DNA from: Elusimicrobiales bacterium
GTDB lineage: Bacteria > Elusimicrobiota > Elusimicrobia > Elusimicrobiales > UBA9959
Assembly: GCA_023701245.1 (NCBI GenBank)
Contig: JAMPXK010000001.1
Span: 23 to 64,022, forward strand
DNA: 64,000 nt
Direction: 5' to 3'
The translations under genes were made by a program, and so were the position numbers. The notes below the pieces were generated by a model, which worked only from the letters and a program-made list of their open reading frames with translations, ran no database searches and had not been told where the DNA came from. Within the stretch, counting starts at the first letter, position 1. Each line of letters begins with the position of its first letter. Positions 1 to 61,417 of this stretch are shown one piece after another.

Positions 1-264
1 AAGCTCATCCTGGGCCCGGTGTTCAGCGTGATGGCCCCCGGCGGCGAAACGCTGGCGCTGGTGAAGCCGCAGTTCGAACTGCAGGCCGCGGACCTGCGCC
101 GCGGGATAGTTAAGGACGAAGCTACGCGCCTGGGCGTCATGGACGGGATGCGCGCCTTCCTGAAGGAAAGCCTGCCCGTAGTGAAAGAACTGGGGCTTAC
201 CGACTCGCCCATAAAAGGCGCGAAAGGCAACCTGGAATTCCTGTGGTACCTGAAAAAGAAATAG
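1..264 (+). CDS. tlyA: TlyA-family rRNA 2'-O-methyltransferase/hemolysin, C-terminal fragment (5' end outside window)
   Basis: Frame 1 is open from nt 1. C-terminal signature LVKPQFE...SPIKGAKGNLEFL is typical of TlyA/FtsJ-like proteins. Stop TAG at 262-264. Confidence 0.75.
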   Translation, partial: KLILGPVFSVMAPGGETLALVKPQFELQAADLRRGIVKDEATRLGVMDGMRAFLKESLPVVKELGLTDSPIKGAKGNLEFLWYLKKK

Positions 265-1394
265 CCGGCGGCAGGCCCGGGCCCGCCTGCGTGGTCTGGG
301 AACTTACCCTGGCCTGCAATTTGAAATGCCTGCATTGCGGCTCTACCGCCGGCGGCCGGCGCGCCGCCGAGCTTTCCCCGGCGGAGGCGCTGGCCCTTTG
401 CGAGGACTTTAAACGCGCCGGCGCGCGTGGCGTGGCGCTGATGGGCGGCGAACCGCTGCTCCGGAAAGATTTTTTCGGGATCGCGGCCAAGGTGCGGGAA
501 CTTGGCATGGAGCTTTCGGTCATTACCAACGGCACCGTGCACGGCGAAGAGGTTTTCTCCCGGCTGGCGGCGCTGAAGCCGCGGGCCGTGGCCGTGAGCC
601 TGGACGCCGCCGACCCGGCGCTGCACGACAGGATACGCGGCGTGCCCGGGTCTTTCCAAAAAACCAGACTCTTCATGGAGCGCTGCCTGGCCGCCGGGCT
701 GCCGCTCAGCGTGATCACTACCGTCCACAAGCTGAATATAAAGGAACTCCCCGCTTTGCGGGACCTGCTCAAGGGGCGCGGCATAGCCTGGCAGGTACAG
801 ACCGCCGGCGGCGAAGGGGGGCGTTTTTCCCGCGAGCTGCTGCTGGACCGGGAGGAGTTCTACTCGGTGGGCATGTTCGTGGAGGCCTGCCGGCGGGAAT
901 ATCCACCGGAAGAATTGCCGGTCATCGGCGCGCATGACCTGGGCTATCATTCCCTGCTGCTCAAGAACGTTTCGCTGTACGAAAAGTGGGAAGGCTGCCA
1001 GGCCGGCGTTTCGGTGGCCGGCGTGCGCAGCGACGGGGGCGTGCTGGGCTGCCTGGCCATCAATGACGACAGATTCCTGGAAGGGAACGTCCGCGAAAAG
1101 AGCTTTACGGAGATCTGGAACGCCGCGGGCGGCTTCGCCTATACCCGCGGCTTTACCCGGGCCCAGGCGGGGCCCGGCTGTTCGGATTGCGGCCACGCGG
1201 AGTCCTGCCGCGGCGGCTGCAGCGAGATGTCGCTGATGAAGACCGGCCGTCTGCACAACGATCCCTACTGTTTCGCCCGCATAGAGCAGGAACTCTTCCC
1301 GGAAGAGCTGCCCGGCACCCTGCGGCGCCTGGCCGGCCGCGCCGCGGGCTCCTTCGCCCGGCTGGGCCTTTTCTTTTCCGGTAAACGCGGCTGA
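243..1394 (+). CDS. Radical SAM enzyme with C-terminal SPASM-type auxiliary Fe-S domain
   Basis: 383-aa ORF. CNLKCLHCGS is a CxxxCxxC motif near the N-terminus, and GGEPLL is a SAM-binding motif. C-terminal Cys-rich block: CQAG..DGGVLGC...CSDCGHAESCRGGCS...DPYC. The GTG start at 243 overlaps the tlyA stop; exact start uncertain. Confidence 0.85.
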   Translation: MVPEKEIAGGRPGPACVVWELTLACNLKCLHCGSTAGGRRAAELSPAEALALCEDFKRAGARGVALMGGEPLLRKDFFGIAAKVRELGMELSVITNGTVHGEEVFSRLAALKPRAVAVSLDAADPALHDRIRGVPGSFQKTRLFMERCLAAGLPLSVITTVHKLNIKELPALRDLLKGRGIAWQVQTAGGEGGRFSRELLLDREEFYSVGMFVEACRREYPPEELPVIGAHDLGYHSLLLKNVSLYEKWEGCQAGVSVAGVRSDGGVLGCLAINDDRFLEGNVREKSFTEIWNAAGGFAYTRGFTRAQAGPGCSDCGHAESCRGGCSEMSLMKTGRLHNDPYCFARIEQELFPEELPGTLRRLAGRAAGSFARLGLFFSGKRG

Positions 1395-1413
1395 TTTTTC
1401 ATAGAATATCCAC

Positions 1414-2253
1414 ATGCTGATAGTGGCGGGCTCTAAAGCGTACGATGAGGCCGAATGGCTGCTCTCCAACGGGGCGGCCGAGGTCTATTGCGGCGTGCCG
1501 GGCCTGCCCAACCACCGCGACGCGGACCAATGCCTGAAAGACGACGGCGAGTTCGTGAGCATCGCCAAAATGGCCAGGGCCAAAGGGCGTCGGGCGCTGC
1601 TGGCCATGAACGAGGCTTGTTTCGAAGAGGATTATCCCGTGGTGGCGGCCCGGGTAAAAGCCATATTGAAGCAGTGCAAAGTCCCGGTCATAATCCGCGA
1701 ACTGCCGCTGCTGCATTATCTTCGCAAGAACGGCGTGAAGGCTGAGTTCATCATCAGCAGCCTTTCGCTGGTCTTCAATTCCAGGGCGCTGGAATATTAC
1801 AAGAACCTCGGCGTGAAACGGGTCATCCTGCCTTTCCACCTTATGCCTTACGAGGCCGGCCGGATAATAGGCAACCGTTTCGGCATGGAGACCGAGATCT
1901 TTTTTCACGCCGATTTCTGCTGTCCCAATATGGACCCGGCCTGCCGGCTGGACGGCTGGCTTAAGTCCTTCCAGGTCTGCCGTTTTCATTATACTTCCAG
2001 CGGCAAAGCCCACCGCATGCCCGAGGCCAATGTGCCCCAGAAGCTGGACATGGTCTATGACGCTTTCCACGCCGGAATCGACTACCTGAAGATCATCCGC
2101 GTTACCGATTTCAAAGACCAGCAGGAAGTGCTCAGGGAAGCCAGGGTAATGCTGGCCCTGCTGGAGAAAGGCGTGTCCCGAGAAGATTTCAGGAAGTTGG
2201 GCGAGAAGCTCTATTTCTCCGTCTCGCGACACGGCGGGAGGACCGGCCGATGA
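1414..2253 (+). CDS. Peptidase-U32-family protein, UbiU-like (module 1, subunit A1)
   Basis: 279 aa. Layout matches U32/UbiU as I recall it: GAAEVYCG near the N-terminus, KRVILPF, then ETEIFFHADFCCPNMDPACRL resembling the U32 signature. Cys169/170/177/189 are conserved with paralog A2. Confidence 0.7.
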   Translation: MLIVAGSKAYDEAEWLLSNGAAEVYCGVPGLPNHRDADQCLKDDGEFVSIAKMARAKGRRALLAMNEACFEEDYPVVAARVKAILKQCKVPVIIRELPLLHYLRKNGVKAEFIISSLSLVFNSRALEYYKNLGVKRVILPFHLMPYEAGRIIGNRFGMETEIFFHADFCCPNMDPACRLDGWLKSFQVCRFHYTSSGKAHRMPEANVPQKLDMVYDAFHAGIDYLKIIRVTDFKDQQEVLREARVMLALLEKGVSREDFRKLGEKLYFSVSRHGGRTGR

Positions 2254-2957
2254 AGCCCGAAAGCGCCCTGCAGTTGAGCGCGCCCGCCCTGCGGGCCGCG
2301 GCTCCCGCCGCGCTTAAGAAGCACGGGCTCCTGTATCTGGGCGACGAGTTCTGTCAGAACCTGGTGCCTTCGCCCGAAGATTTCGCCCTGGCCCTGCGCA
2401 AATTTCCCGGCCGTGTGGTCCTGGTGACGCCGCTGCTCACCGACGCCGCTTTCGACTCCGTAGAAGCGATCGTTAAAGCTCACTCTTCCCCGCGCCGCCG
2501 CCTGGAGGTGGTGGTCAACGACCTGGGCCTGCTGCATACGTTCAAGGCCCGCTATTCACACCGGGTGCTGGTTTCGCTAGGCCGGGTTTTCGCCCACAGG
2601 GTGAAGGTGATGCCGCGCAAGTTCGCCGCCGGTTTCCTTAAAGAACACAATGTGAAGCGCGTGGAGCTCGACGACCCGGCGCTGCTGCCGCGTTTCGAAG
2701 GCCTCGGCCTGAAATTCTCCTTTCATACGGGATTCCGCTACGTGTCCGTCACCCGCTTCTGCCCGTGGGAACTGCATTGGCCCGGTGCCTGCGGCCATGC
2801 CTGCTCCGGGCGGGTCAAAAAGCTGGAGCACCCGCGCCTCCCAGCCCCGCTGTTCCTGAGAGGGCAGGCTTACGGCCTGAAGACCGGCGCCGCGCCGAGC
2901 CACCCGGCCATAAACAGGCTGGTGCGCGAACCCCTTCCTGCCGGGGGCCGCAAATGA
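2250..2957 (+). CDS. Peptidase-U32-family protein, UbiV-like (module 1, subunit B1)
   Basis: 235 aa. ATGA overlap with A1. LLYLGDEFC resembles the UbiV VIYLGEAVC region, followed by NDLGLL. Four Cys (35, 171, 181, 185) lie in the RFCPWE..W..ACGHAC context. Confidence 0.6.
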   Translation: MKPESALQLSAPALRAAAPAALKKHGLLYLGDEFCQNLVPSPEDFALALRKFPGRVVLVTPLLTDAAFDSVEAIVKAHSSPRRRLEVVVNDLGLLHTFKARYSHRVLVSLGRVFAHRVKVMPRKFAAGFLKEHNVKRVELDDPALLPRFEGLGLKFSFHTGFRYVSVTRFCPWELHWPGACGHACSGRVKKLEHPRLPAPLFLRGQAYGLKTGAAPSHPAINRLVREPLPAGGRK

Positions 2958-3799
2958 AAACCGTGGTGGGGGTTAAGACCTACGACGAAGCGGCCACTAT
3001 GCTGCGCCTCGGGGCCGACGAACTTTACGGCGGGCTGGCCGCCATTCCCAACCACCGCCTGCCCGCCCAGTCCTTCCAGTCCATGGACGAGTTGAAGGCC
3101 GCGGTGCGGCTGGCGAAAAAAATGGGCCGGCGCTTCTCGCTGCTGGTCAACCAGCCTTCCTTCGGGACCAGGTATAAGAAAACTCTGGCCGTGGCGCAGG
3201 AGCTGGACTCCCAAGGCCTGGGCGCCTGCATAGTGCGCGAACTGCCGATGCTGGAAAGCCTGCGCGCCCTGAAGCTGAAGGCGCGGCTTACGGTCAGCAG
3301 CCTCGCACTTTGCTTCAACCTGCCGGCCATGCGCAGGTACAAGCAGTTGGGCGCTTCACGGGTGGTGCTCCCTTTTCAACTGCTGCCGTCCGAAGCGGCG
3401 CCGCTGATAAAGAACCCCTACGGGCTGGAGACGGAGGTGTTCTTCCACGCCGATTTCTGCTGCGCCAATATAGACCCGGCCTGCCGCCTCTGGAACCTGA
3501 CGCACCGGGACCAGACCTGCCGCTTTTCCTACAAGGGCCCCGGCGGCCGCTGGCGCATGCCCGAGGCCAATGCCCGGGAAAAGATGCGCGCCGTCTACGG
3601 CTTTTACCACAGCGGGGCGCAGTACCTCAAGATCATCCGTATGAACGATTTCGCCGAGGAGCTGGAAGTCTTCAAGTTCGCCCGCATCATAGACCGCCTG
3701 CTCAAAAAAGGCCAGTCCGAGGAGGAGTTCTGCCGGCTGGGGGAAAAACTTTATTTCACCGTATCGCGGCACGCGAGGAGCGCATGGAAAAAGCGCTAG
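2954..3799 (+). CDS. Peptidase-U32-family protein, UbiU-like (module 2, subunit A2; paralog of 1414-2253)
   Basis: Internal ATG at 2954 forms an ATGA overlap with the B1 stop. The 281-aa product aligns end to end with A1 (PNHR, RELP, SSL.L.FN, ETEVFFHADFCCANIDPACRL, RMPEAN, YLKIIR, LGEKLYF.VSRH). The upstream part of the 2765 ORF overlaps B1 and is Arg/Pro-rich junk. Confidence 0.7.
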   Translation: MKTVVGVKTYDEAATMLRLGADELYGGLAAIPNHRLPAQSFQSMDELKAAVRLAKKMGRRFSLLVNQPSFGTRYKKTLAVAQELDSQGLGACIVRELPMLESLRALKLKARLTVSSLALCFNLPAMRRYKQLGASRVVLPFQLLPSEAAPLIKNPYGLETEVFFHADFCCANIDPACRLWNLTHRDQTCRFSYKGPGGRWRMPEANAREKMRAVYGFYHSGAQYLKIIRMNDFAEELEVFKFARIIDRLLKKGQSEEEFCRLGEKLYFTVSRHARSAWKKR

Positions 3800-4470
3800 C
3801 GCTGGAGGCCTGCGGGCCCGAAGATATACGCGCCATCCCCGCCGGGTGTAAGGCCGTGGTGATAGGTTCGGAATTCTGCTCCGGCCTGCTGCCGGCCCCG
3901 GCGCAGGCCCGCGCCCTGAGGCAAGCCTTTAAGGGCAAGATAGTACTGGCCACCACGCTGCTGACGCAGGCCGCGCTTGAAAAAGCAATTGCGCTGGTAA
4001 AGATAATTTCAACGGGCGGGCCCGCCGGGGTTATAGCTAACGACCTGGGCCTGCTGGAAGCGCTGCGCGCCCGAAAGAAATCCCCGCCGGTGAACTGCGG
4101 CCGCATCCTGGCGCACCGGGTGAAGATCATGCCGGAGGCTTACGCTAAGGATTTCCTCGCCCGCTATCGCATCGCCGGGTTCGAAGCGGACGACGCCGCC
4201 ATACTCAAGCGGCTCGAACCTTACGGCCTGCCTTTCTCCTGGCATTACCCTTTCCGTTACGCCACCGTCACGCGGTTCTGCCCCTGGGAGAACCGCTGGG
4301 CCGAAGGCTGCGGCCGCTCCTGCCTGGGGCGGGCCCGCAAGTTAACGAGCCCGAGGCTGCCCGGGCCGCTCTGGCTGCGCGGCTGCGCCTACTTCGTGAA
4401 AGGCAACGCCCCGCGGCGCGGCTCGGCGCGCAGCGTGTATACGCCGCCGGCGGCCAAAAATGAAATATAA
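3784..4470 (+). CDS. Peptidase-U32-family protein, UbiV-like (module 2, subunit B2; paralog of 2250-2957)
   Basis: ATG at 3784 (16-nt overlap with A2). The 228-aa product aligns with B1 (GSEFC, NDLGLL, HRVKIMP, TVTRFCPWENRWAEGCGRSC). Cys32/166/176/180 have the same 10/4 spacing as B1. Confidence 0.6.
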   Translation: MEKALALEACGPEDIRAIPAGCKAVVIGSEFCSGLLPAPAQARALRQAFKGKIVLATTLLTQAALEKAIALVKIISTGGPAGVIANDLGLLEALRARKKSPPVNCGRILAHRVKIMPEAYAKDFLARYRIAGFEADDAAILKRLEPYGLPFSWHYPFRYATVTRFCPWENRWAEGCGRSCLGRARKLTSPRLPGPLWLRGCAYFVKGNAPRRGSARSVYTPPAAKNEI

Positions 4471-5446
4471 ACTGAACCTGGGCTGCGGCTATAACCGCCT
4501 GGAAGGCTGGCTCAACCTGGACGCCAGCCCGGAGTCCGCGGCCGACCGGCTGATGCCGGCGCATGACCTGGCCTTCCCGGACGGGTCGGCCGCAGTGGCG
4601 CGGGCCGCGCAGCTGATTGAACACCTGGGCTTTTTTAAAGCGAAATTTTTCCTGTCCGAGTGCTGGCGCGTGCTGGAAACAAACGGCCGGCTGGAACTGG
4701 AGACTCCTGATATAGAAAAAACTTTCAGGATCTTCCTGGCCGGCGGCCACGCGGTGAAAGAAGCGGCGCTGGGCTGGGTTTACGGTTCTGAAACCCCCGG
4801 GATGAACCACCTGTACTGTTTCCCCGCGGCCCTGCTGGAAGAACTGCTGGCGGAAGCCGGTTTTTCCGCCATTAAAACGGAGGAATTCCTGTTCCAGCCT
4901 GCGCGCCCCGCGCTGCGCCTGGAGGCCGTGAAGAAGGAGTGCGAGCAGGCGGCCCTGAACGCCGCCCTGCGCCGCCGCCTGCTGGACGAGGGGACAGCTG
5001 TTTTCTCCGACGAGGAGACCAGCGCCGGCCTGGACCAGGCCATCCGCAGGCTTACCGCCTGCGGCGGAAAGCCCGGGGCCGCTCTGGAGGCCGCGCTTTG
5101 CAGCGCTCCCGCCGCGCTGGCCTATTTTTCCATAACGCAGGAGAACGAACATCACCAGTCTGCCGAGGCGGCCGCCTGCGCCCGGCTTTGCGGCTGGCGG
5201 CTGCAGGGCAGGCTGGCCGCGGCTTATGCAGGCGCGCTGGCCGGCGGTCTTGACGAGGAAAAGGCTTTCGCCGCCGCCCTGGCTGCCGGCCGGCAGATCC
5301 TGGCCGCGGCCCTCGCCGGCGCCGCGCAGGCGCCGGGGCCCGAACCGGCGGCCGGCGCCCCCGGAGCGTTCACGCCAGGGGCCGCCCGCGCCTGGGCCTT
5401 CCGGCGTAAATACGGCGAAACGGGGGATTTGCGGGGGGCAGGGTAA
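4460..5446 (+). CDS. Class I SAM-dependent methyltransferase with ~170-aa Ala-rich C-terminal extension
   Basis: 328 aa. N-terminal LNLGCG motif I-like, FPDGS, VLETNGRLELETP (Methyltransf_11/23-like). The C-terminal half is low-complexity Ala/Leu-rich and helical-looking. The start overlaps B2 by 11 nt. Confidence 0.7.
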   Translation: MKYKLNLGCGYNRLEGWLNLDASPESAADRLMPAHDLAFPDGSAAVARAAQLIEHLGFFKAKFFLSECWRVLETNGRLELETPDIEKTFRIFLAGGHAVKEAALGWVYGSETPGMNHLYCFPAALLEELLAEAGFSAIKTEEFLFQPARPALRLEAVKKECEQAALNAALRRRLLDEGTAVFSDEETSAGLDQAIRRLTACGGKPGAALEAALCSAPAALAYFSITQENEHHQSAEAAACARLCGWRLQGRLAAAYAGALAGGLDEEKAFAAALAAGRQILAAALAGAAQAPGPEPAAGAPGAFTPGAARAWAFRRKYGETGDLRGAG

Positions 5447-5471: not shown

Positions 5472-5498
5472 GGGCGGGCCGTTGTGCCGCCCTTTTTT
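5472..5498 (+). terminator. Rho-independent terminator after the methyltransferase gene
   Basis: GGGCGG / CCGCCC stem (about 5472-5477 / 5487-5492) followed by TTTTTT at 5493-5498. Confidence 0.6.
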
Positions 5499-5559
5499 GT
5501 TTTAGCGCTCGTAAAATACCGGAACTTGTTTCCGGATATACATCACAGGAGAAACTACA

Positions 5560-5748
5560 ATGAAGAAAACGCTGATATTCGCCCTTCCCCTGGTGGCCCT
5601 CATGCTGGCCGCCGCCTGCAAGAAGCAGGAGGCCGCCCAGCCTGAAGCCCCTGCTCTCGAGCAGGTGGCCGGCACCGCTTCCGAGGCCGCGCCCGCCGCT
5701 GCCCCGGCCGCTGCCCCGGCCGCTGCCCCGGCCAAGACCGGGAAGTAA
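5560..5748 (+). CDS. Small lipoprotein (62 aa) with AAAP repeats
   Basis: AGGAG SD 9 nt upstream. MKKTLIFALPLVALMLAAAC is a signal peptide plus lipobox (LAAAC). Flanked by terminators on both sides. Confidence 0.65.
   Translation: MKKTLIFALPLVALMLAAACKKQEAAQPEAPALEQVAGTASEAAPAAAPAAAPAAAPAKTGK
5695..5733 (+). repeat. Perfect 12-bp tandem repeat (GCCGCTGCCCCG x3 plus partial) inside the small lipoprotein gene
   Basis: Read directly: units at 5695-5706, 5707-5718 and 5719-5730, encoding (AAAP)n. Confidence 0.9.
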
Positions 5749-5767: not shown

Positions 5768-5799
5768 GCCGGCGCCGTTCGCGGCGCCGGCTTTTTTTT
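5768..5799 (+). terminator. Rho-independent terminator
   Basis: GCCGGCGCCG (5768-5777), loop TTCG, CGGCGCCGGC (5782-5791), then T8 (5792-5799). Confidence 0.85.
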
Positions 5800-5866: not shown

Positions 5867-6169
5867 ATGAGAAAACTTTACGAACTAGGGGCGAAGACCG
5901 GCCTGGACAGGGCCGAAGTGAACCGGATAGCCAAATTCGGCGTGCTGGGGCTGCTGGCCCTGGGCCTGGCTTCGCTGGCCGCCTGTTTCAAGGCGCAGAA
6001 GCCGGCGGAGCCCGCTGCCTCCAAACCTACGCTCCAGGACCTGGTCAACTCGGTCAACGCCAGTACCGATACTTCCAAGCCGCAGGATAATTGCGGCCCT
6101 TACCCCGGGTATCCCTGCGGCACGCGTTATTACACGGTCAGCCGCGGCGATTTCAGGAGGCAGGCATGA
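5867..6169 (+). CDS. Hypothetical lipoprotein (100 aa)
   Basis: ATG at 5867 is preceded by GGAGGGG. Hydrophobic segment FGVLGLLALGLASLAAC has a lipobox. An in-frame GTG at 5918 would give a more canonical signal peptide, so the start is uncertain. Confidence 0.55.
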   Translation: MRKLYELGAKTGLDRAEVNRIAKFGVLGLLALGLASLAACFKAQKPAEPAASKPTLQDLVNSVNASTDTSKPQDNCGPYPGYPCGTRYYTVSRGDFRRQA

Positions 6170-7110
6170 ACTTTTTTCTTAAATCCCTGGCGCTGGTGTT
6201 CCTGCTTTGCAGCCAGGCCGGCGCGCTGGACTGTCCCCGCGGCGAAGAAAAGGCCGAGGACTGCCCCTGGGCCGGCGCCGCGCGCCTTCTGACGGAACGC
6301 GCCGAAAAAAAAGAACCGCTGGAACCGGTCTTTTCGGCGCAGCTGCCCGGCCTGCTGCGGCAGCTGGATATGGACCGCGCCTCCCCGGCGCTGCAGCTCT
6401 GGGGCGAGAGCATAAATTTCGACGAACTGGCCAAAGGCACCATAGTGCACCCAGGGATACTGGAGTTCCTTTCCTCCCGCCTGGGCGCGCCCCAGCCGAA
6501 GGGCAGGATAGCGCACGCCGGCCTGGAGCATACCTACGGGTATCTTTTCAGCCTGCTGCCCACCAAGTTCGGCTTCAAGCGCGCGCGCTGGGTGCGCCCC
6601 GACATAGAGGACGGCCTGGGCCTGCCGCGCGGCAGCGCCGGCCCCGCTCCCTCCGAGGGTACGCTGCTGGCCAATATAACCTGCCTGGCCGGGGGCATAG
6701 CGCTCAAGGACGACCCCGCCGCCGCGGCCCTGCTGCAGCGGATGGCGCCGTATTGCGGTTCCGCCGTGCGGGCCTACGCCGCGCGGCCGCTGAAGCGCGG
6801 CCGGCTCACCGAGGAAGTTTCCCTGCCCGGCGGGCGCCAGGTGACACTGCGCACCGATTTCGCTCCCTTCAAAGCCGTTTACGGCGGCAATACCCACCTG
6901 CTGGTCTATTCCGTCTACGATTCCGCCATCCGCCGGGCCTACCTGGTGACGGCCTTTCCCGTGAACGCGGGTTTTGTGAACAACGCGCTTTCGCCTTCCG
7001 GCCTGGGGGCCGGCAAGCCGGTGCAGACGCGCTATAACGCCCACGTGGAAGGGCTTACCGGCGCCGGCAAGCTGAAGGGCAGCAGGACCGTTACGATCAT
7101 AGAACAATGA
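6166..7110 (+). CDS. Secreted hypothetical protein (314 aa)
   Basis: ATGA overlap with the upstream gene. N-terminal signal peptide MNFFLKSLALVFLLCSQAGA. No family recognised. Confidence 0.6.
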   Translation: MNFFLKSLALVFLLCSQAGALDCPRGEEKAEDCPWAGAARLLTERAEKKEPLEPVFSAQLPGLLRQLDMDRASPALQLWGESINFDELAKGTIVHPGILEFLSSRLGAPQPKGRIAHAGLEHTYGYLFSLLPTKFGFKRARWVRPDIEDGLGLPRGSAGPAPSEGTLLANITCLAGGIALKDDPAAAALLQRMAPYCGSAVRAYAARPLKRGRLTEEVSLPGGRQVTLRTDFAPFKAVYGGNTHLLVYSVYDSAIRRAYLVTAFPVNAGFVNNALSPSGLGAGKPVQTRYNAHVEGLTGAGKLKGSRTVTIIEQ

Positions 7111-8597
7111 GAAAAGCCGCGCTGCTGCTGCCGCTGCTGCTCTCCGGTTGCGGCGGCTATTATTCCGTAAGGGTGCCGTACAACCTGCCTGACATGCCAG
7201 GGGCCGCCTCCGCGCGGCCGGCCCTTTCTTCCCTTTACCTCAAGGTGGTTACGGCTCCGCCGGAGCCTGACAACGCGCTGGGCGCGCTGGCCGGGGCCCT
7301 GATGAACCGCCAGGGGCCGGAGTTCAGGCCTTCCGAACTGGGGCGGCAGGCGGCCAAAGCGCTGAACCGGCCCGGGGCCCGGGTCTGTGCCTGGCGCGTG
7401 GACAAGACCGGAGGAGAGGACCCGTTCACCGCGGGGCTCAAGCCCGCCGGCCTGCTGAAGGTGGAAGCGCTGCCGCCGTCCGTCTCCTCGAAGAAAGAGG
7501 AACGCTCCACGGTCTATTACAACAAGAAGAAACAGGCCCAGACCGTGAAGAATAAGGTCTGGGCCTATTCCGCCTCTTTGTACGCCAAAGTGGCGCTGTA
7601 TGCCCTGCCGGCCATGGAAGAGCTTGATTCCTGGTCCGATACTTTTTCTTTCACGGAAGACCGCCTGGATAATTCCAAGGACGCCGGGGACTGGTACGCG
7701 GACAACGAAGGCAAACTCTATTCCGCGCTGACGGCCAGGCTGACCGGCCGCTACGCGGGCCGCCCGGTAGAAAGAGTGCGGCCCCTGTTCGCCGTGAAGA
7801 AGGATAAGGAGTCCGAAGAGGCGCTGAAACTGGCCCAGCGCAACAGCTGGAACCAGGCTGAGGAGGTCTGGGCCAGGCGGGCCAAGGCCGCCGGCGGCTG
7901 GCGCGACCACCTGGGGCTGGCCGTAGCCGCCGAGCTGAAGAAGGATTACGCCTCCGCCGGAGAACATTACCGGCTGGCGCAGGCGGCCGGCGGGTCCGAC
8001 AAGGACGCCAGATTCGTGCGCTGGGCGGAGATCTTCCGCGACCTGGAAATTTTTTCCTCTACCGCGGCGGCCGGGCGCTGCGGCGGCGAGTGGTTCGGGC
8101 GCCGCACGGCGCTGCTGCCGTTCACGGACCAGACCACCAGCCTGGACGGGCCGCCTCTGGTGCGCGGCCTGGTCTACGAGAGTCTGAAGGCCGCGGGCTA
8201 TGACCTTGTCCCTCTGGAGGAGACCGACGAGACGCTGCGGCGCCGCGGCTTCTCCGACGGCGGCCAGCTGGCGGCCGCCAAGCCGGCGGATATCGCGGCC
8301 TGGCTGGGCGCGGACCGGCTGATCTATTGCGATATCAGCGATTTCGGCGAGATCATGGCCGGCGTCTATAACCGGCGCATGGTGAAAGGGTCGGCCCGCA
8401 TCTGGGAAGCCGGCGCCGGTGAGCTGTCTTTCGAGGAAAGCGTGGTGAAAGTGAAGACGCCCAAGAGTTTCGCCGCCGGGCTATTTACCCAGCTGGCCAA
8501 GGGCCTGGCCGAGCGCATCAAGAACAAACCGCTCGCCTATGAGTCGGCCCTCTTCGCCCGCCAGCTCACCGAAAACCTCCCCAACCTCTCAAAATAA
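7107..8597 (+). CDS. Lipoprotein (496 aa) with C-terminal DUF799/GNA1162-like region
   Basis: ATGA overlap with the upstream gene. MRKAALLLPLLLSGC lipobox. The C-terminal block LLPFTDQT...GYDLVPLEE...LGADRLIYCDISDF resembles the DUF799 lipoprotein pattern from memory. Confidence 0.6.
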   Translation: MRKAALLLPLLLSGCGGYYSVRVPYNLPDMPGAASARPALSSLYLKVVTAPPEPDNALGALAGALMNRQGPEFRPSELGRQAAKALNRPGARVCAWRVDKTGGEDPFTAGLKPAGLLKVEALPPSVSSKKEERSTVYYNKKKQAQTVKNKVWAYSASLYAKVALYALPAMEELDSWSDTFSFTEDRLDNSKDAGDWYADNEGKLYSALTARLTGRYAGRPVERVRPLFAVKKDKESEEALKLAQRNSWNQAEEVWARRAKAAGGWRDHLGLAVAAELKKDYASAGEHYRLAQAAGGSDKDARFVRWAEIFRDLEIFSSTAAAGRCGGEWFGRRTALLPFTDQTTSLDGPPLVRGLVYESLKAAGYDLVPLEETDETLRRRGFSDGGQLAAAKPADIAAWLGADRLIYCDISDFGEIMAGVYNRRMVKGSARIWEAGAGELSFEESVVKVKTPKSFAAGLFTQLAKGLAERIKNKPLAYESALFARQLTENLPNLSK

Positions 8598-55057: not shown

Positions 55058-56491
55058 ATGAGGATCCTGCTTATAAACCTGCCGCGTGTCGACGGCTTCC
55101 CGGTGATCCGGGAGGAGCGGTTCGAACACAAGGATTTCGAGATGGTCCAGCCTCCGCTGGGCCTGCTCTACTGCGCGTCCATGCTGCGCGCGGCGGGACA
55201 CGCCGTGGCCCTTATAGACGCCAACGCGCTGGACCTTTCGCAGGCAGAGACGGAGCGCAGGGCGGCCGCCTTCGCGCCGGGGATCATAATCGCCAGGGTG
55301 GCTTTCGACGCGCAGGACCAGGACGCGGCGGCGCTGGCCCGCATAAAAGCGGCCGTGCCCGGCGCCCTGGTGCTTACCCGAAATAAAATACTTTCCGACG
55401 TTCCGGCCCTGCGCGACGCTTTCATGGCGCGGCACCCGCAGCTGGACTACTTCCTGCTGATGGAACCTGAATCCGTAGTGGGCCAGGTCTGCGCGGCCCT
55501 GGCGGCCGGGCAGCGCCCGCCCGCCGCCGCCTGGCTGGAGAAAGGCGCGGTCACGGAAGGCGCCCCCGCCCAGCTGCCCGCCGCCCTGGACGAGTTCCCT
55601 TTCCCGGCCTATGACCTGCTGGAGACCATGGCGCCGTACAAGACCAGCATGTTCGGCCCCGTCTATACGCTGGTGCTTTCCAGCCGCGGCTGCCCGTTCC
55701 AGTGCACTTTCTGCGCCTATTGCCGTTCCAAGTACCGCGAGCGGTCCGCCGCCAACGTGGTGGCCGAACTGAAATGGCTCAAGGAGACCGTCGGGCTCAA
55801 GAATTTCGTGTTCTTTGACGACACTATCTCGCTCAAGCGCGAGCGCACCATGGAGATCTTCCGGCTCATGCGCGAGAGCGCCCTGGACCTGAAGTTCGGA
55901 GTCTGCACCCGGGTGGACCTGATAGACGACGAGATGGTGGCCGCGGCCAGGGCCGCCGGCTGCGTGGAGATCGGTTTCGGGGTGGAGTCGGGCTCCCAGA
56001 AAGTGCTGGACCTGGCCAAGAAGGGGATAAAGCTCGACCAGGTGCGCGCCGCCTTCGCCCTCTGTAAAAAACACGGCATAAAATCCATCGCCTCGGTGAT
56101 CCTGGGCCTGCCCGGGGAGACCGAAGAGACCGTCCGCGAGACTTTCCGCTTCATCTCCGAATTGAACCCGTATTACTGCCAGTACGCCATCGCGGTACCC
56201 TTTCCCAATACGGAAGTGTACCGCTATTACGACGAGCGCGGCCTTATCCTTACCCGCGACTGGACCAAATACAACCCGCTGGAGGTCTCCCCGGTGTTCC
56301 GCACCGAGGCGCTCAGCGCCGAGCGTCTTACCGAACTGAAACGCCAGGGCTACATAAAGTTCCTGCTGCGCCCCTCGTTCATACTTTCCAAGATAGAACC
56401 GTTCAACCTGCTGTGGAACATAAAGGGTTTCTTCATGTACGCTCACCGGCTGGCCGGGCTGCTGCTGAGCGGCAGGAAGTACGTCCGCTGA
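55058..56491 (+). CDS. B12-binding-domain radical SAM enzyme (class B), paralog 1
   Basis: 477 aa. N-terminal Rossmann-like B12 domain (MRILLINLP...PPLGLLYCASMLR). SSRGCPFQCTFCAY is a CxxxCxxC motif. Confidence 0.85.
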   Translation: MRILLINLPRVDGFPVIREERFEHKDFEMVQPPLGLLYCASMLRAAGHAVALIDANALDLSQAETERRAAAFAPGIIIARVAFDAQDQDAAALARIKAAVPGALVLTRNKILSDVPALRDAFMARHPQLDYFLLMEPESVVGQVCAALAAGQRPPAAAWLEKGAVTEGAPAQLPAALDEFPFPAYDLLETMAPYKTSMFGPVYTLVLSSRGCPFQCTFCAYCRSKYRERSAANVVAELKWLKETVGLKNFVFFDDTISLKRERTMEIFRLMRESALDLKFGVCTRVDLIDDEMVAAARAAGCVEIGFGVESGSQKVLDLAKKGIKLDQVRAAFALCKKHGIKSIASVILGLPGETEETVRETFRFISELNPYYCQYAIAVPFPNTEVYRYYDERGLILTRDWTKYNPLEVSPVFRTEALSAERLTELKRQGYIKFLLRPSFILSKIEPFNLLWNIKGFFMYAHRLAGLLLSGRKYVR

Positions 56492-57609: not shown

Positions 57610-58580
57610 CAAAAGTATCGGTGGTAGTTCCCGTATATAACGGGGCCAGGACCATAGGCCTGGCCCTGGACGCGCTGCTGGCGCAGACAGTGAAGGACCT
57701 CGAGATCATAGTGGCCGACGACGGGTCTACCGATAATACGGCGGAACTGGTCAGGGCGCGCCCCGTTAAATACCTGCGTCAGGAGAACGCCGGGCCCGCC
57801 AAGGCGCGCAACCTGGGCTGGCGCGCGGCCTCCGGAGAGATCATTTTTTTCACCGACTCGGACTGTGTGCCCGAGCCGGAGTGGGTGGCTAAGCTCTTGC
57901 GCGCTTTCGCGGACCCGGCTGTTTCCGCCGCCGGCGGCACTTACGGCATAAAGAACCCGGAAAGCCTGGTGGCGCAGTGCATCCATTACGACATCCAGTA
58001 CCGTCACGCGCGTCTGGGCACCGAGGTGGCCTACCTGGGCTCCTTCAGCCTGGCCCTGCGCCGCACCGCCCTGGAGGCGGCAGGCGGCTTCGACGAGAGT
58101 TTCCGCATAGCCTGCGGCGAGGACGCCGACCTCTCCTACCGCCTCTACAAGGCAGGCCACCGCTTCCGTTTCGACAAGAACTGCCTGGTCTTCCATCATT
58201 TCCCGGTCGGTTTCACCCATTTCTGCCGTCAGCAGTTCTGGCGCGGCTACTGGATCATGAAGCTGCTGGCCCGGCACGGCAGCACCGGCGCTCCGGGATA
58301 CAGTAATTTCCTGGACGCGCTGCAGCCGCCTCTTTTCGCGCTGGCCCTGGCCGCGCTGGCGGCGGCGCCGCTGCTGCCGGCCGTCAGAACCGCGGCGCTG
58401 GTCCTCAACCTGCTGGCGTTCGCCGTGAACCTGCCCTCGGCGCTGTTCGGCGTCCGCGCGTCGGGGTCGCCCCGCCTGCTGTTCTCCCTGGTTCTGTTCT
58501 ATTTCAGGGGTTTCGCCTGGGTGCTGGGCCTGGCTTACGGCTCTGGCTTCCTGCTTTCCCGCGGCGGTGACAAGAAATGA
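57606..58580 (+). CDS. GT2 glycosyltransferase with C-terminal TM helices
   Basis: ATGA overlap. VSVVVPVYNG, VADDGSTDNT, FTDSDC (DxD), QQFWRGYW (QxxRW-like). Confidence 0.8.
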   Translation: MTKVSVVVPVYNGARTIGLALDALLAQTVKDLEIIVADDGSTDNTAELVRARPVKYLRQENAGPAKARNLGWRAASGEIIFFTDSDCVPEPEWVAKLLRAFADPAVSAAGGTYGIKNPESLVAQCIHYDIQYRHARLGTEVAYLGSFSLALRRTALEAAGGFDESFRIACGEDADLSYRLYKAGHRFRFDKNCLVFHHFPVGFTHFCRQQFWRGYWIMKLLARHGSTGAPGYSNFLDALQPPLFALALAALAAAPLLPAVRTAALVLNLLAFAVNLPSALFGVRASGSPRLLFSLVLFYFRGFAWVLGLAYGSGFLLSRGGDKK

Positions 58581-59992
58581 AAATACTGCTCCTTAACCCG
58601 CCGGCCGGCACCAGCCTTTCTTCCACGCTGCCGGATAAGTACACCTCCGTGGAGATAGGATATTACCCGCCGCTGGGCCTGATGTACCTGGCCGGTTACC
58701 TGCGCGCCCGGACCGCCCACACGGCCGTGATAGCCGACATGGTGGCCCAGCGCCTGGTGCTGGGCGACCTGGCCGGCCTGCTGGAACGCCACCGTCCCGA
58801 CGCGGTGGGCGTTTACTCGGCCAGCGCCACCGCCAACAGCGTGTACAAGATCTGCGCCAGGCTAAAAGAGCTCGCCCCGACGCTGCCGGTCATAGTGGGC
58901 GGTCCCCACGCCGACATTTTCCCGGCGGAAACCGTGGCCTGGCCCGCGGTGGACTACGTGGTGCGCGGCGAGGGCGAGCTGACCCTGGCCGAACTGCTCG
59001 ACCGCTTGGCCGGCGGCGGGGACCCGGCCGGGGTGGCCGGGGTGTACAGCAAGAAGGACGGGGTTGCGGTTTCCGGCGGCGACCGGCCGCCCGTGGCCGA
59101 TCTCGACGAACTGCCTTTCCCGGCCCGGGACCTGACCGAGTATAAGAAGTACCATTCCGCCATAGGCAAGGACAAGGTGGCCACCACGCTGATGACCAGC
59201 CGCGGCTGCCCTTACCGCTGCAATTTCTGCTTTGTGCAGTACGGCGGGCGCTACCGGGCCCGCAGCGCGGCCAACGTGCTGGCCGAGATAGAGGAATGCC
59301 TGAAGCTGGGTATCCGCGAGTTCTTCTTCTTCGACGAGATCTTTACGGTGGACAAGAAGCGCGTGCTGGCCATCTGCGACGAGATAGTCAGGCGCAAGCT
59401 GGATATAACCTTCGAGGTGCGCTCCCGCATCAATACCATGGACGCGGAGATGCTCGCCGCCCTGAAGAAGGCCGGCTGCGAGCGGATCTCCTACGGCGTG
59501 GAGTCCGCCTGCGACGAAGTGCTGAAGGCCATGAACAAGCGCATTACCGCCGCGCAGGCCCGCGAGGTGACGGCGCTGACACAGCGGGCGGGGATAGAGG
59601 TGTTCCTGGATTTCATGCTGGGCTACCCCGGAGAGACCAGGGAGCAGATGCTGCGCACCATGGCCTTCGCGCGCGAACTGGACCCCGACTACGTGCAGTT
59701 CGCCATAACGGTGCTTATTCCCGGCACTACCATTTACGACGAGGCCCTGGCCTCCGGGCAGCTTAAGTCGGATTTCTGGCGCGAGGTGGCCAAGAACCCG
59801 CCTGACCTGATAGTGCCGCCGCTGGCATCGGATAAATACGGCCGCGAGTTCCTGGAGGAGATGTTCAGGAAGGCTTACAGGGGGTTCTATTTCCGGCCGG
59901 CCTACGTCCTGAAGCGGCTCAAGAAGATCTCGTCGCTGACGGAGCTGGGCAGGCACATAAAAGGCGCCTTCCAGCTTTTCAGGGACAGTTAG
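58577..59992 (+). CDS. B12-binding-domain radical SAM enzyme (class B), paralog 2
   Basis: 471 aa. ATGA overlap. MKILLLNPP...PPLGLMYLAGYLR. TSRGCPYRCNFCFV. Confidence 0.85.
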   Translation: MKILLLNPPAGTSLSSTLPDKYTSVEIGYYPPLGLMYLAGYLRARTAHTAVIADMVAQRLVLGDLAGLLERHRPDAVGVYSASATANSVYKICARLKELAPTLPVIVGGPHADIFPAETVAWPAVDYVVRGEGELTLAELLDRLAGGGDPAGVAGVYSKKDGVAVSGGDRPPVADLDELPFPARDLTEYKKYHSAIGKDKVATTLMTSRGCPYRCNFCFVQYGGRYRARSAANVLAEIEECLKLGIREFFFFDEIFTVDKKRVLAICDEIVRRKLDITFEVRSRINTMDAEMLAALKKAGCERISYGVESACDEVLKAMNKRITAAQAREVTALTQRAGIEVFLDFMLGYPGETREQMLRTMAFARELDPDYVQFAITVLIPGTTIYDEALASGQLKSDFWREVAKNPPDLIVPPLASDKYGREFLEEMFRKAYRGFYFRPAYVLKRLKKISSLTELGRHIKGAFQLFRDS

Positions 59993-59995
59993 AGG

Positions 59996-61417
59996 TCAGG
60001 CTTTTTTCCTGCCGAGCAGGTAGGAGAAGAAACTGCGCGCGCCGTAGAGCTTGCGCATCAGGTCCGACGGGGAAGTGAAAAGCATCCGCAGTATCTGCAG
60101 GGGGCGCAGGTAGAATTCCTTCAGGCCCCTGTCTATAAAATAATCTATTTCTTCCTTGGACAGCTGGGGATAGCTGAGCAGGGTCACCTGCTCGCAGTTC
60201 GGGCTCACCCACTCGCGCCAGTCCTTTGGCACCAGGTAGCCTTTTTCCCTGGCCCAGTCGTAAAGTTCCGTGCCAGGGTACACGCAGATGCCGGAGAACT
60301 GCACCGTGTCCAGGGGGAGGCTCTTGGCGAACTCTATGGTGGCCTCCGCCGATTCCCTGGTCTCGCCGGGCGCGCCTACCATGAAGCAGCCGTGCAGGGT
60401 AAAACCCAGCCGCGAGGCTTCGGCCGCGAAACTGCGGGACTGCTCCAGCGTTATCCCTTTCTTTACCGCGTCCAGGGCGGCCTGGGTGCCGAATTCGAAC
60501 CCTACCATCAGCATGCGGCAGCCGGCCTTTTTCATGAGCGGCAGCAGGGAGAGGTCCATGTCCACCCGGGTATTGCAGCTCCAGGTGACCTTGAGACCGC
60601 GCTTGAGGATCTCCTCGCAGAGCGCCTTCAGGTGGACGGCCGAACCGGTCAGGGTATCCGTTTCGAACATGAGCTCGCGCAGCCGGGGGAAAAGCTTCAG
60701 GTCGTATTCCATCTCGTCCACGATAGCCCGGGCGGAGCGCAGGCGCATGTGGCGGCCGTGCATGGACTCGGTGGTGTCGCGGCAGAAGGTGCAGCGGCCC
60801 AGGCAGCCGCGCCCGGAGATGATGGTGAGGAAAGGGACGCGCTTGGCCACGTCCTTGTAAAGTTCCGGATCGATGTGGCGCCAGGCGGGGAAAGGCAGGG
60901 AGTTCACGTCCACCGGCGCGCCGTAGGGGTTGTTGACGGCCTTGCCGTCCTTGAGGTAGCTCAGGCCGGCTATCGATGCCGGGTCCTTGCCGTAGGCCAG
61001 GTCCAGGAGGACGTAGTCGTATTCTCCGCGCGCTACGTAGTCCGCGGCGCCGCCGGCGAGGGCCAGGGTCTCGGCGGGCAGGGCGGTGACATGGGGGCCT
61101 ACCAGCACGGTGCGGCAGCCGCAGGTCTCCTTGAGCATCCTGGCGTGGTCGATGTCGGAATAAATGGAGGGGGTGGTGGTATGGACCACGGCCAGTTCCG
61201 GGCGGAAGTCCGCGGCTATGGCGGCCACTTTCTTCATGTCCAGGTTGAGGGCCGCGGCGTCGGTGAACACGACCTGGTGGCCGCCGCGCTCCAGCACGGC
61301 CACGGCGGTGAGCAGCCAGTCGGGGTGGCGCTGCACGCGGCCGCGGGATTTGGCGGCCCACCTGGCGGAGCGGCAGAAATCTTCGCCGTAGAAAGGGTTG
61401 AGTACCAGGACTTTCAT
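59996..61417 (-). CDS. B12-binding-domain radical SAM enzyme (class B), paralog 3
   Basis: 473 aa. MKVLVLNP.... SGRGCLGRCTFCRD. The N-terminal FCRSARWAAKSRGRV segment is reminiscent of HpnJ-like members (from memory). Confidence 0.8.
   Translation of the reverse strand: MKVLVLNPFYGEDFCRSARWAAKSRGRVQRHPDWLLTAVAVLERGGHQVVFTDAAALNLDMKKVAAIAADFRPELAVVHTTTPSIYSDIDHARMLKETCGCRTVLVGPHVTALPAETLALAGGAADYVARGEYDYVLLDLAYGKDPASIAGLSYLKDGKAVNNPYGAPVDVNSLPFPAWRHIDPELYKDVAKRVPFLTIISGRGCLGRCTFCRDTTESMHGRHMRLRSARAIVDEMEYDLKLFPRLRELMFETDTLTGSAVHLKALCEEILKRGLKVTWSCNTRVDMDLSLLPLMKKAGCRMLMVGFEFGTQAALDAVKKGITLEQSRSFAAEASRLGFTLHGCFMVGAPGETRESAEATIEFAKSLPLDTVQFSGICVYPGTELYDWAREKGYLVPKDWREWVSPNCEQVTLLSYPQLSKEEIDYFIDRGLKEFYLRPLQILRMLFTSPSDLMRKLYGARSFFSYLLGRKKA

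Follow-up and report, generated by a model that had tools for sequence, protein, structure and literature searches.

A radical-SAM enzyme, two UbiU/UbiV-like protein pairs, and a methyltransferase beside a small lipoprotein in Elusimicrobiales: a possible O2-independent protein hydroxylation system

The locus examined here lies at the start of a 64,000-nucleotide (nt) stretch of contig JAMPXK010000001.1 from an Elusimicrobiales bacterium (assembly GCA_023701245.1). This whole stretch is referred to as the window, and the loci compared with it carry L numbers; the best database matches were Elusimicrobia bacterium GWA2_62_23 and related groundwater genomes. Six co-oriented genes encode a radical S-adenosylmethionine (SAM) enzyme (rSAM), a cassette of two UbiU/UbiV-like pairs of the peptidase U32 type (A1, B1, A2, and B2, in the order A-B-A-B), and a methyltransferase-like protein (MT). 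A gene for a small lipoprotein (PEP), the candidate substrate of the encoded enzymes, follows downstream:

243..1394, + strand: radical-SAM/SPASM enzyme (rSAM), putative maturase of the downstream small lipoprotein (Pfam)
1414..2253, + strand: A1, UbiU-like U32 subunit of pair 1, putative Fe-S protein (Pfam U32, 1e-9)
2250..2957, + strand: B1, UbiV-like subunit of pair 1, putative Fe-S protein (cysteine pattern; no Pfam/NCBIfam match)
2954..3799, + strand: A2, UbiU-like U32 subunit of pair 2, paralogue of A1 (Pfam U32, 7e-11)
3784..4470, + strand: B2, UbiV-like subunit of pair 2, paralogue of B1 (cysteine pattern)
4460..5446, + strand: MT, divergent class-I SAM methyltransferase-like protein with an Ala-rich C-terminal domain (weak Methyltransf_11/23)
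5472..5503, + strand: intrinsic-terminator-like hairpin and U-run closing the six-gene unit (sequence reading and fold)
5867..6169, + strand: PEP, small lipoprotein of 100 amino acids (aa), candidate substrate (neighbourhood and family; 420 nt downstream of MT)

A preliminary description of this DNA, made from the sequence alone, had reported six tightly packed co-oriented genes at 243 to 5446, and the list of open reading frames (ORFs) confirmed both the coordinates and the junctions. A 19-nt gap separates rSAM from A1, A1/B1 and B1/A2 share ATGA overlaps, and the A2/B2 and B2/MT overlaps are 16 and 11 nt long. The terminator proposed after MT was also recovered, as a hairpin with a U-run at ∼5472 to 5503 (−17.5 kcal/mol, z = −2.0); its 9-nt loop explains why a simple terminator scan had not detected it. 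The start of rSAM is ambiguous (GTG243 or GTG291). The overlap with the stop of the upstream tlyA gene that had been described exists if GTG243 is the start, whereas GTG291, the start used in a 100%-identical database protein (P0085), leaves a 26-nt gap after tlyA.

rSAM matched the Pfam models Radical_SAM (95.3 bits) and SPASM (30.8 bits), both above cutoff. It contains a CNLKCLHC motif and combines the CX3CX2C core with a SPASM auxiliary-cluster domain, as do the radical-SAM/SPASM maturases. The top NCBIfam matches were peptide maturases, the best being TIGR03913 (188 bits, cutoff 592), and all were below the NCBIfam cutoffs, so that rSAM belongs to no named maturase family (TIGR03913, TIGR04103, PqqE, HxsB/C, or QhpD). 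Among the structures in the PDB, a profile of the rSAM family came closest to the peptide maturases SkfB (7e-25) and PqqE (2.5e-22) and to a chain labelled "Radical SAM" (5v1q, 2.5e-16). Identities to rSAM are 57 to 86% across Elusimicrobia and ∼60% to proteins of Geobacter and other deltaproteobacteria, and more than 120 clusters share at least 57% identity with it. When metagenomes were scanned with the rSAM profile, most of the matches were unrelated SPASM enzymes (∼30% identical), and only L059 to L065 were at the level of orthologues. PADLOC defence models gave no system match and merely a generic similarity to viperin-type radical-SAM enzymes. A tetrapyrrole-related role, suggested by sub-threshold NirJ/AhbD-like matches of rSAM and by a CbiF-like methylase in Nitrospirota, was set aside for the window because peptide maturases score higher and a cognate protein was found.

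In domain searches, the Methyltransf_11 and Methyltransf_23 matches of MT were sub-threshold; MT had no sequence match in the PDB and matched neither TrmR nor the Cmo family. MT is 62% identical to the product of a gene that overlaps the rSAM stop in another Elusimicrobia locus (L058) and, over 305 residues, 42% identical to that of the gene directly after rSAM in Geobacter hydrogenophilus (L057). Judged by these neighbours, MT is the ancestral partner of the rSAM gene.

Next, the four proteins of the cassette were compared with characterized U32 proteins. A1 shares 47% identity with A2, and B1 shares 46% with B2, so that the four genes are a tandem duplication of one A-B pair. Peptidase_U32 (PF01136; Pfam cutoff, 22.4 bits) matched A1 (38.5 bits, 1e-9) and A2 (42.3 bits, 7e-11), in each case over the N-terminal part of the model only, and neither B1 nor B2 had a match in Pfam or NCBIfam. 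Overall, the gene content that had been described was borne out by Pfam. The nearest named NCBIfam model for A1 and A2 was UbiU (NF047963; 39 and 32.5 bits, cutoff 440). The TrhP model scored 26 and 30.5 bits with the A proteins (cutoff 534), DUF3656, the RlhA domain, was absent from the Pfam and NCBIfam results for the cassette proteins, and B1 and B2 did not match the UbiV-type model NF011991 (cutoff 283 bits).

The cysteine residues were then compared with those of UbiU and UbiV, each of which has four conserved cysteines as ligands of a [4Fe-4S] cluster. In an alignment of 52 sequences that included Escherichia coli UbiV, the positions of UbiV C39, C180, C193, and C197 were Cys in 51 to 52 of the 52 members, B1 and B2 included; the aligned residues of B1 (Cys35, Cys171, Cys181, and Cys185) are invariant in the family. 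A1 residues Cys170, Cys177, and Cys189 align with UbiU Cys169, Cys176, and Cys232. The fourth ligand of UbiU, C193, falls in an insertion that is missing from the A family, which has an extra adjacent cysteine (Cys169), and A2 carries the same four cysteines as A1. Because the UbiV cysteine pattern is kept, B1 and B2 can be tied to the U32 superfamily. Putative Fe-S cysteine motifs are present in both subunits, and the earlier call of two UbiU/UbiV-like pairs stands.

An AlphaFold2 (AF2) model of A1 (predicted local distance difference test [pLDDT] score, 82) had as its best TM-score match in the PDB the U32 protein 5D88, the only solved U32 structure (TMq 0.56, TMt 0.62, E = 1.7e-6). The B1 model (pLDDT 92) showed a beta/alpha barrel-like fold, for which Foldseek returned generic TIM-barrel matches only. 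A PDB sequence search with A1 gave nothing useful. Comparing the B profile with individual UbiU and UbiV sequences by hhalign produced no significant match but did align the N-terminal Cys motif. In a rough neighbor-joining tree, the elusimicrobial A proteins formed their own clade, apart from UbiU, TrhP, RlhA, and other U32 pairs. This clade held the type-1 A1 and A2 groups, which are sisters, the type-2 and type-3 groups, and one Omnitrophota sequence. Database clusters numbered only ∼50 for B1 and ∼33 for A1, in contrast to the more than 120 of rSAM. As classified by their motifs and by this tree, A and B are UbiU/UbiV-like, probable Fe-S proteins of a new U32 subfamily and belong to no characterized one. 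The subfamily has been seen so far almost only in Elusimicrobia, and its pairs are likely O2-independent hydroxylase-type enzymes.

The preliminary description had found no obvious precursor peptide in the window. PEP, at 5867 to 6169, is a conserved candidate. Its conserved N-terminal segment, MRKLYELGAKTGLDRAEVNRIAKFG, is followed by a hydrophobic stretch that ends with the lipobox LAAC and by a C-terminal core, CGPYPGYPCGTRYYTVSRGDF. The core consensus of the family is YP-x-GT(R/K)Y-x-TVS-xx-DF, which in the lineage of the window reads CGPYPGYPCGTRYYTVS..DF. An exhaustive search of 1.84 billion representative proteins yielded 46 clusters, nearly all of 96 to 160 aa and aligning end to end, and no Pfam, NCBIfam, or PADLOC model matched the family. 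The core lies at the C terminus in all 20 clear members among 22 proteins retrieved, the other two being a fragment and a spurious repeat protein (P0242). The two cysteines are found only in a subset of the family.

A PEP homologue adjoins rSAM in 10 loci (the window, L001, L008, L057, L058, L059, L060, L139, L140, and L141) from at least two phyla. The distance between the two genes is 0 to 2.7 kb, and the PEP gene overlaps the rSAM start in L139, L140, and L141. These neighbourhood and family relationships support a protein-maturation module that would comprise rSAM, often MT, and a small lipoprotein, and it is likely, as read from gene order, that rSAM and MT act on PEP. Several members of the family differ from PEP of the window. 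A Kunitz/BPTI domain stands between leader and core in four of them (L057:7509-7988, L139:6577-7011, L140:6601-7011, and L141:6574-7011), in which the PEP gene ends at the rSAM start. One of the L139 to L141 loci is labelled Deltaproteobacteria; in these three the core is without Cys, and no MT gene is adjacent.

The history of the block was then traced through its relatives. The order rSAM-A-B-A-B-MT recurs in L001 (rSAM 85% identical), L005, and L008 (rSAM 75% identical), and this composite order is retained down to 75% identity in rSAM and 63% identity in MT. Because the order recurs in relatives, the arrangement is not a chance one. However, the block had been described as a self-contained six-gene unit, and here the comparison argued otherwise, since its parts are also found apart. 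The rSAM stop overlaps the MT start in L058, with no U32 genes between them, and overlapping rSAM-MT pairs without U32 genes are likewise found in L059 and L060; in Geobacter (L057), the two are adjacent without U32 genes. Conversely, L006 has the order tlyA-A-B-A-B without rSAM, MT, or PEP, and L051 and L053 have A-B-A-B without rSAM-MT in quite different surroundings. The cassette was found between rSAM and MT only in this lineage. Reconstructed from these arrangements, the block is a lineage-specific merger of a widespread rSAM and MT pair with an A-B-A-B cassette. Most simply, the cassette was inserted once between rSAM and MT, and the flanking genes were later lost in some lineages.

Other surroundings of the cassette bear on its function. 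Several Elusimicrobia carry a second A-B-A-B locus (L010 to L019). The commonest neighbors of the cassette are radical-SAM genes, of the SPASM type in 20 of 47 loci and of the B12 type in 11 of 47. The flanks of the second loci are variable and rich in B12-type and SPASM-type radical-SAM genes; they also encode asparagine synthase, a deacetylase, and an amine oxidase whose gene adjoins a B12-type radical-SAM gene. We considered whether these loci are the nitrogenase-paralogue/radical-SAM islands of groundwater Elusimicrobia (bioRxiv 10.1101/765248) and dropped the idea: no NifH/D/K-type family was present in the annotated neighbourhoods, and the paper on these islands makes no mention of U32. 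In two divergent Elusimicrobia, type-1 cassettes also have as neighbors a gene for an amine-oxidase/PRK07208-type flavoprotein and, adjoining it, a B12-type radical-SAM gene (L051:6826-9587, − strand; L053:15633-18454, + strand); L019 and L020 have members of this flavoprotein family as well.

In three genomes (L010, L013, and L046), the second-type cassette has a chorismate mutase/shikimate operon as its neighbor. UbiU and UbiV take oxygen from prephenate (PMC10990095), and this placement fits such a dependence. In the layout shared by the three loci (L046:2141-12468), the second-type cassette and then a DJ-1/PfpI gene converge on a complete shikimate operon; with chorismate mutase, this operon is a source of prephenate, the UbiU/UbiV oxygen donor.

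Two further contexts contain radical-SAM-modified proteins. The first is HXS, an antiphage system in which the effector HxsA is matured by radical-SAM enzymes and exported; U32 genes are unmentioned in the recent paper describing it (Nat Commun 2026, PMC13128918). L053 holds a tightly packed operon, HxsD-HxsB-(100 aa)-(383 aa)-rSAM/SPASM-A-B-A-B, whose A1 is 69% identical to A1 of the window, and HxsA and HxsB flank second-type cassettes in L011, L015, and L017. The HxsA-like genes (L011:13306-13626, L015:14921-15247, L017:14887-15213, and L053:1802-2128, all − strand) lie at most 6 kb from an A-B-A-B cassette in these four loci, together with HxsB (above the NCBIfam cutoff) and several conserved uncharacterized genes. 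Their products have a long His-Gly-Ser run, in place of the five repeats of canonical HxsA.

The second context is the qhp operon, which encodes quinohemoprotein amine dehydrogenase. In four qhp operons, a distant B+A U32 pair occupies the position between qhpB and qhpF (L043:3087-12300 of Schinkia azotoformans, with qhpC, A, D, B, F, and E, and L030, L033, and L037), and two of the four genomes are labelled Thermodesulfobacteriota. QhpC, QhpA, and QhpE scored above cutoff, and QhpD scored 445 bits against a cutoff of 453. In aerobes, the FAD monooxygenase QhpG adds two O2-derived oxygens to a Trp of QhpC that has been cross-linked by a radical-SAM enzyme (PMC7876137). None of the four U32-bearing operons had a QhpG gene within 8 kb, which suggests an O2-independent route to cysteine tryptophylquinone (CTQ).

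With the gene content, cysteine motifs, fold, modular history, and neighbourhood link between rSAM and a small protein established, a working model for the locus can be proposed. In a first module, ancestral and found across phyla, rSAM and MT would act in the cytoplasm on the C-terminal core of PEP before export; rSAM would form a cross-link or another radical modification on the core, and MT would add a methyl group. In a second module, two paralogous UbiU-like/UbiV-like [4Fe-4S] heterodimers, A1B1 and A2B2, translationally coupled to MT, would hydroxylate aromatic side chains of PEP, most likely Tyr, without O2. The exported protein would then bear a catechol, methoxy, or quinone-type group. 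We infer every chemical step, the formation of the heterodimers, and above all the choice of PEP as the substrate of the cassette.

That the cassette hydroxylates aromatic residues of PEP without O2 is the explanation we tentatively favor, with a probability of roughly 40%, based on analogy with the phenol-ring chemistry of UbiU/UbiV and with the U32 pairs in qhp operons that lack QhpG. Three considerations led us to it. The cassette keeps a coupled position between two genes that normally overlap; U32 pairs recur beside radical-SAM-modified proteins in three unrelated systems; and the phenol-to-catechol step of ubiquinone synthesis resembles hydroxylation of Tyr.

Several observations weigh on the other side. 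Two terminators separate PEP from MT and place it in another transcription unit, and loci that have the cassette do not differ cleanly in the PEP core from those that lack it. In L006 and L007 the cassette persists at an unchanged chromosomal position without rSAM, MT, and PEP, and in L009 it does so without MT; given this survival, it may work independently; many genomes have rSAM and MT without a cassette on the same contig, so neither needs it. The qhp-linked pairs are only 24 to 29% identical to B1, and the A-subunit tree groups their A proteins in another clade. In Nitrospirota (L049:9222-11754 and L004:9277-11478), a gene for a CbiF/CobM-like methyltransferase (127 bits, below cutoff) is coupled to a B-A pair; therefore, some U32-pair contexts are not peptide-related, and this hints that the Nitrospirota subfamily may have a non-peptide substrate. 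Finally, we know of no U32 protein that has been shown to act on a protein.

A possible though somewhat doubtful explanation is that the cassette is a passenger, encoding O2-independent hydroxylases for another substrate (an HxsA-like effector elsewhere, or a secondary metabolite of radical-SAM-rich islands) and merely sharing the rSAM-MT transcript. The loci that keep it without rSAM, MT, and PEP (L006, L007, L051, and L053) would be expected from such a history, as would the second A-B-A-B locus of the same genomes (L010 to L019), with its variable radical-SAM-rich contexts, and the proximity of HxsA in four loci. However, a passenger accounts less well for the exact site between two normally overlapping genes and for the 11-nt overlap onto MT, which are retained across considerable divergence, and no Hxs gene and no run of at least three His-x-Ser repeats was found in any frame of the 64-kb window.

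We regard as improbable a UbiU/UbiV-like role in which the pairs would hydroxylate the precursor of an aromatic lipid or quinone and MT would be a UbiG-like O-methyltransferase. UbiU is the nearest named model for A1 and A2, the UbiV cysteine pattern is kept in B, and the ubiquinone pathway likewise proceeds by hydroxylation and then methylation (PMC10990095). However, 39 and 32.5 bits are far from the equivalog cutoff of 440, the A proteins form a clade apart from UbiU, and MT resembles UbiG in no curated model and is a conserved partner of rSAM in loci without U32 genes. In addition, no UbiT/SCP2, UbiA, UbiD/X, or UbiE family occurs in the annotated neighbourhoods of L001, L046, L051, L052, and L053.

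An RNA substrate is very improbable. The pairs would then be rRNA or tRNA hydroxylases in the manner of TrhP, RlhA, or Bacillus YrrN/YrrO, MT would methylate the hydroxyl, and tlyA, to which the block had been described as coupled, would mark an RNA-modification neighbourhood. Formation of 5-hydroxyuridine (ho5U) and 5-hydroxycytidine (ho5C) is indeed among the known U32 functions (PMC6599085, PMC5727448), tlyA is directly upstream in the window, L001, and L006, and the opposite strand carries a tRNA U5-methyltransferase gene 3 kb downstream. The hint from tlyA did not survive comparison: it is not adjacent in L008, L058, L051, or L053, and in L059 it lies 2 kb from an rSAM-MT pair without U32 genes, so that its adjacency is local synteny, unconserved, and lends an RNA target no support. 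Furthermore, the TrhP scores of 26 to 30 bits compare with a cutoff of 534, DUF3656 is absent, MT has no TrmR/Cmo match and belongs to the rSAM-PEP module, and four heterodimers per genome (two A-B-A-B loci) would be excessive for one RNA mark. Taken together, the neighbourhood evidence does not support an RNA or a quinone substrate.

It is scarcely credible that the U32 proteins are true peptidases that process the precursor of an rSAM-modified protein: the family was defined from the reported collagenase activity of PrtC and HP0169 (discussed in PMC5727448) and a protease is often present in peptide-maturation clusters, but the Fe-S cysteine sets are kept in both subunits (all four UbiV positions in B; three UbiU positions plus the adjacent Cys in A). 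The U32-bearing qhp operons already encode a protease, QhpE, and have no hydroxylase gene nearby. PEP itself has a lipobox, and proteins with one are normally processed by the general lipoprotein signal peptidase.

Beyond the favored cassette-PEP system, further genes surround the six-gene unit and PEP:

19..264, + strand: 3' end of a tlyA-like rRNA 2'-O-methyltransferase gene, a neighbor outside the system (NCBIfam TlyA, E ∼8e-6, C-terminal 81 aa)
5560..5748, + strand: lipoprotein of 62 aa with Ala/Pro-rich repeats (ORF and lipobox), alone between two terminators and between the MT and PEP genes
6166..8597, + strand: secreted protein of 314 aa and GNA1162-like lipoprotein of 496 aa (2e-8), ATGA-coupled to PEP

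The full tlyA-like gene of the relative L001 encodes 245 aa with S4 and FtsJ domains. The 62-aa lipoprotein had no family match, and it is followed by a strong terminator at 5768 to 5799 (10 G-C pairs and a run of eight T's). The 314-aa protein and GNA1162-like pair is also found in L006, where PEP, rSAM, and MT are absent. Farther along the window, a glycan-type cluster (42978 to 63802) contains three B12-binding radical-SAM genes (55058-56491, 58577-59992, and 59996-61417) and genes for asparagine synthase, carbamoyltransferase, a PMT_2-methyltransferase fusion, a glycosyltransferase, and an amine-oxidase-like flavoprotein; its content resembles the flanks of the second-type cassettes.

As the preliminary description had surmised, no characterized system of this composition was found in NCBIfam, Pfam, PADLOC, or the searched literature. 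The components are of known kinds (U32 anaerobic hydroxylases and radical-SAM/SPASM maturases), and their combination is not categorically new. Known U32 substrates have so far been ubiquinone precursors and RNA bases only, and most of the twelve U32 subfamilies are without a known function (PMC10990095, PMC5727448). In the literature searched, no paper connected U32 proteins with qhp operons, with Hxs loci, or with the modification of peptides or proteins, and none described the family of PEP, the rSAM-associated lipoprotein; one apparent U32 match was spurious, as it concerned residue U325 of a selenoprotein. The rSAM-(MT)-lipoprotein module would thus be an undescribed cross-phylum maturation system with a well-defined core motif, ready for reconstitution.

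The repeated placement of a new U32 subfamily beside radical-SAM enzymes that modify ribosomal proteins indicates that such U32 enzymes may modify proteins, and it raises the question of whether prephenate-type hydroxylation extends to proteins. For the qhp operons, the missing chemical step is already known, the addition of two oxygen atoms to Trp, and the question there is how anaerobes build quinone cofactors thought to need O2. We think it unlikely that the most far-reaching version holds in full, namely, that A1B1 and A2B2 are the first O2-independent protein side-chain hydroxylases, that with rSAM and MT they turn the core Tyr of PEP into a catechol, methoxy-catechol, or quinone and so provide an anaerobic route to a protein-derived redox or metal-binding cofactor, and that the same enzyme class replaces QhpG in anaerobic CTQ biogenesis.

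The proposed system can be compared with five known ones. The yrrMNO operon of Bacillus subtilis, which encodes TrmR and the U32 pair YrrN/YrrO (tRNA 5-methoxyuridine [mo5U]), likewise combines two U32 proteins with a SAM methyltransferase. The window differs in having rSAM, in an MT that is unrelated to TrmR and belongs to the rSAM-PEP module, and in A and B proteins that are not close to the TrhP type. HXS, in which HxsA is matured by HxsB/HxsC, with HxsD (PMC13128918), shares a radical-SAM-matured protein exported to the periplasm, and in L053 a U32 cassette of the same clade is co-operonic with HxsD and HxsB. In contrast, the window has no HxsA, HxsB, HxsC, or HxsD, PEP has no His-x-Ser repeats, and canonical HXS has no U32 genes.

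In pyrroloquinoline quinone (PQQ) biosynthesis, a Tyr-containing peptide core (PqqA) is cross-linked by PqqE, which is among the closest solved relatives of rSAM (2.5e-22), and then hydroxylated on the ring. This hydroxylation is O2-dependent. The window has no other pqq genes, and its candidate substrate is a lipoprotein, not a free peptide. CTQ biogenesis (QhpC, the radical-SAM enzyme QhpD, and then QhpG) follows the same logic, in that a small exported protein is first modified by a radical-SAM/SPASM enzyme and then undergoes hydroxylation at an aromatic residue. The qhp operons of anaerobes and of a denitrifier that have no QhpG nearby contain distant relatives of A and B. However, no qhp gene occurs in the window, PEP and QhpC are unrelated, rSAM is not QhpD, and the qhp-linked U32 pairs are themselves only presumptive hydroxylases.

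UbiU/UbiV (YhbU/YhbV of E. coli), which are O2 independent and prephenate dependent, are also two different U32-type subunits encoded side by side. The ATGA coupling of A and B genes is a hint that these proteins, too, may form heterodimers. The cassette proteins are shorter (A by ∼50 and B by ∼60 residues), the pair is tandemly duplicated, the A scores are far below the cutoffs, B has no profile match, and the proteins form a separate clade. There is no UbiT or other ubi gene nearby, and the neighbors are radical-SAM peptide-type enzymes. Even so, B retains all four cluster cysteines of UbiV, A retains three of the UbiU positions, and the A1 model has the TIM-barrel U32 fold. An aromatic ring as the likely target completes the resemblance to UbiU/UbiV.

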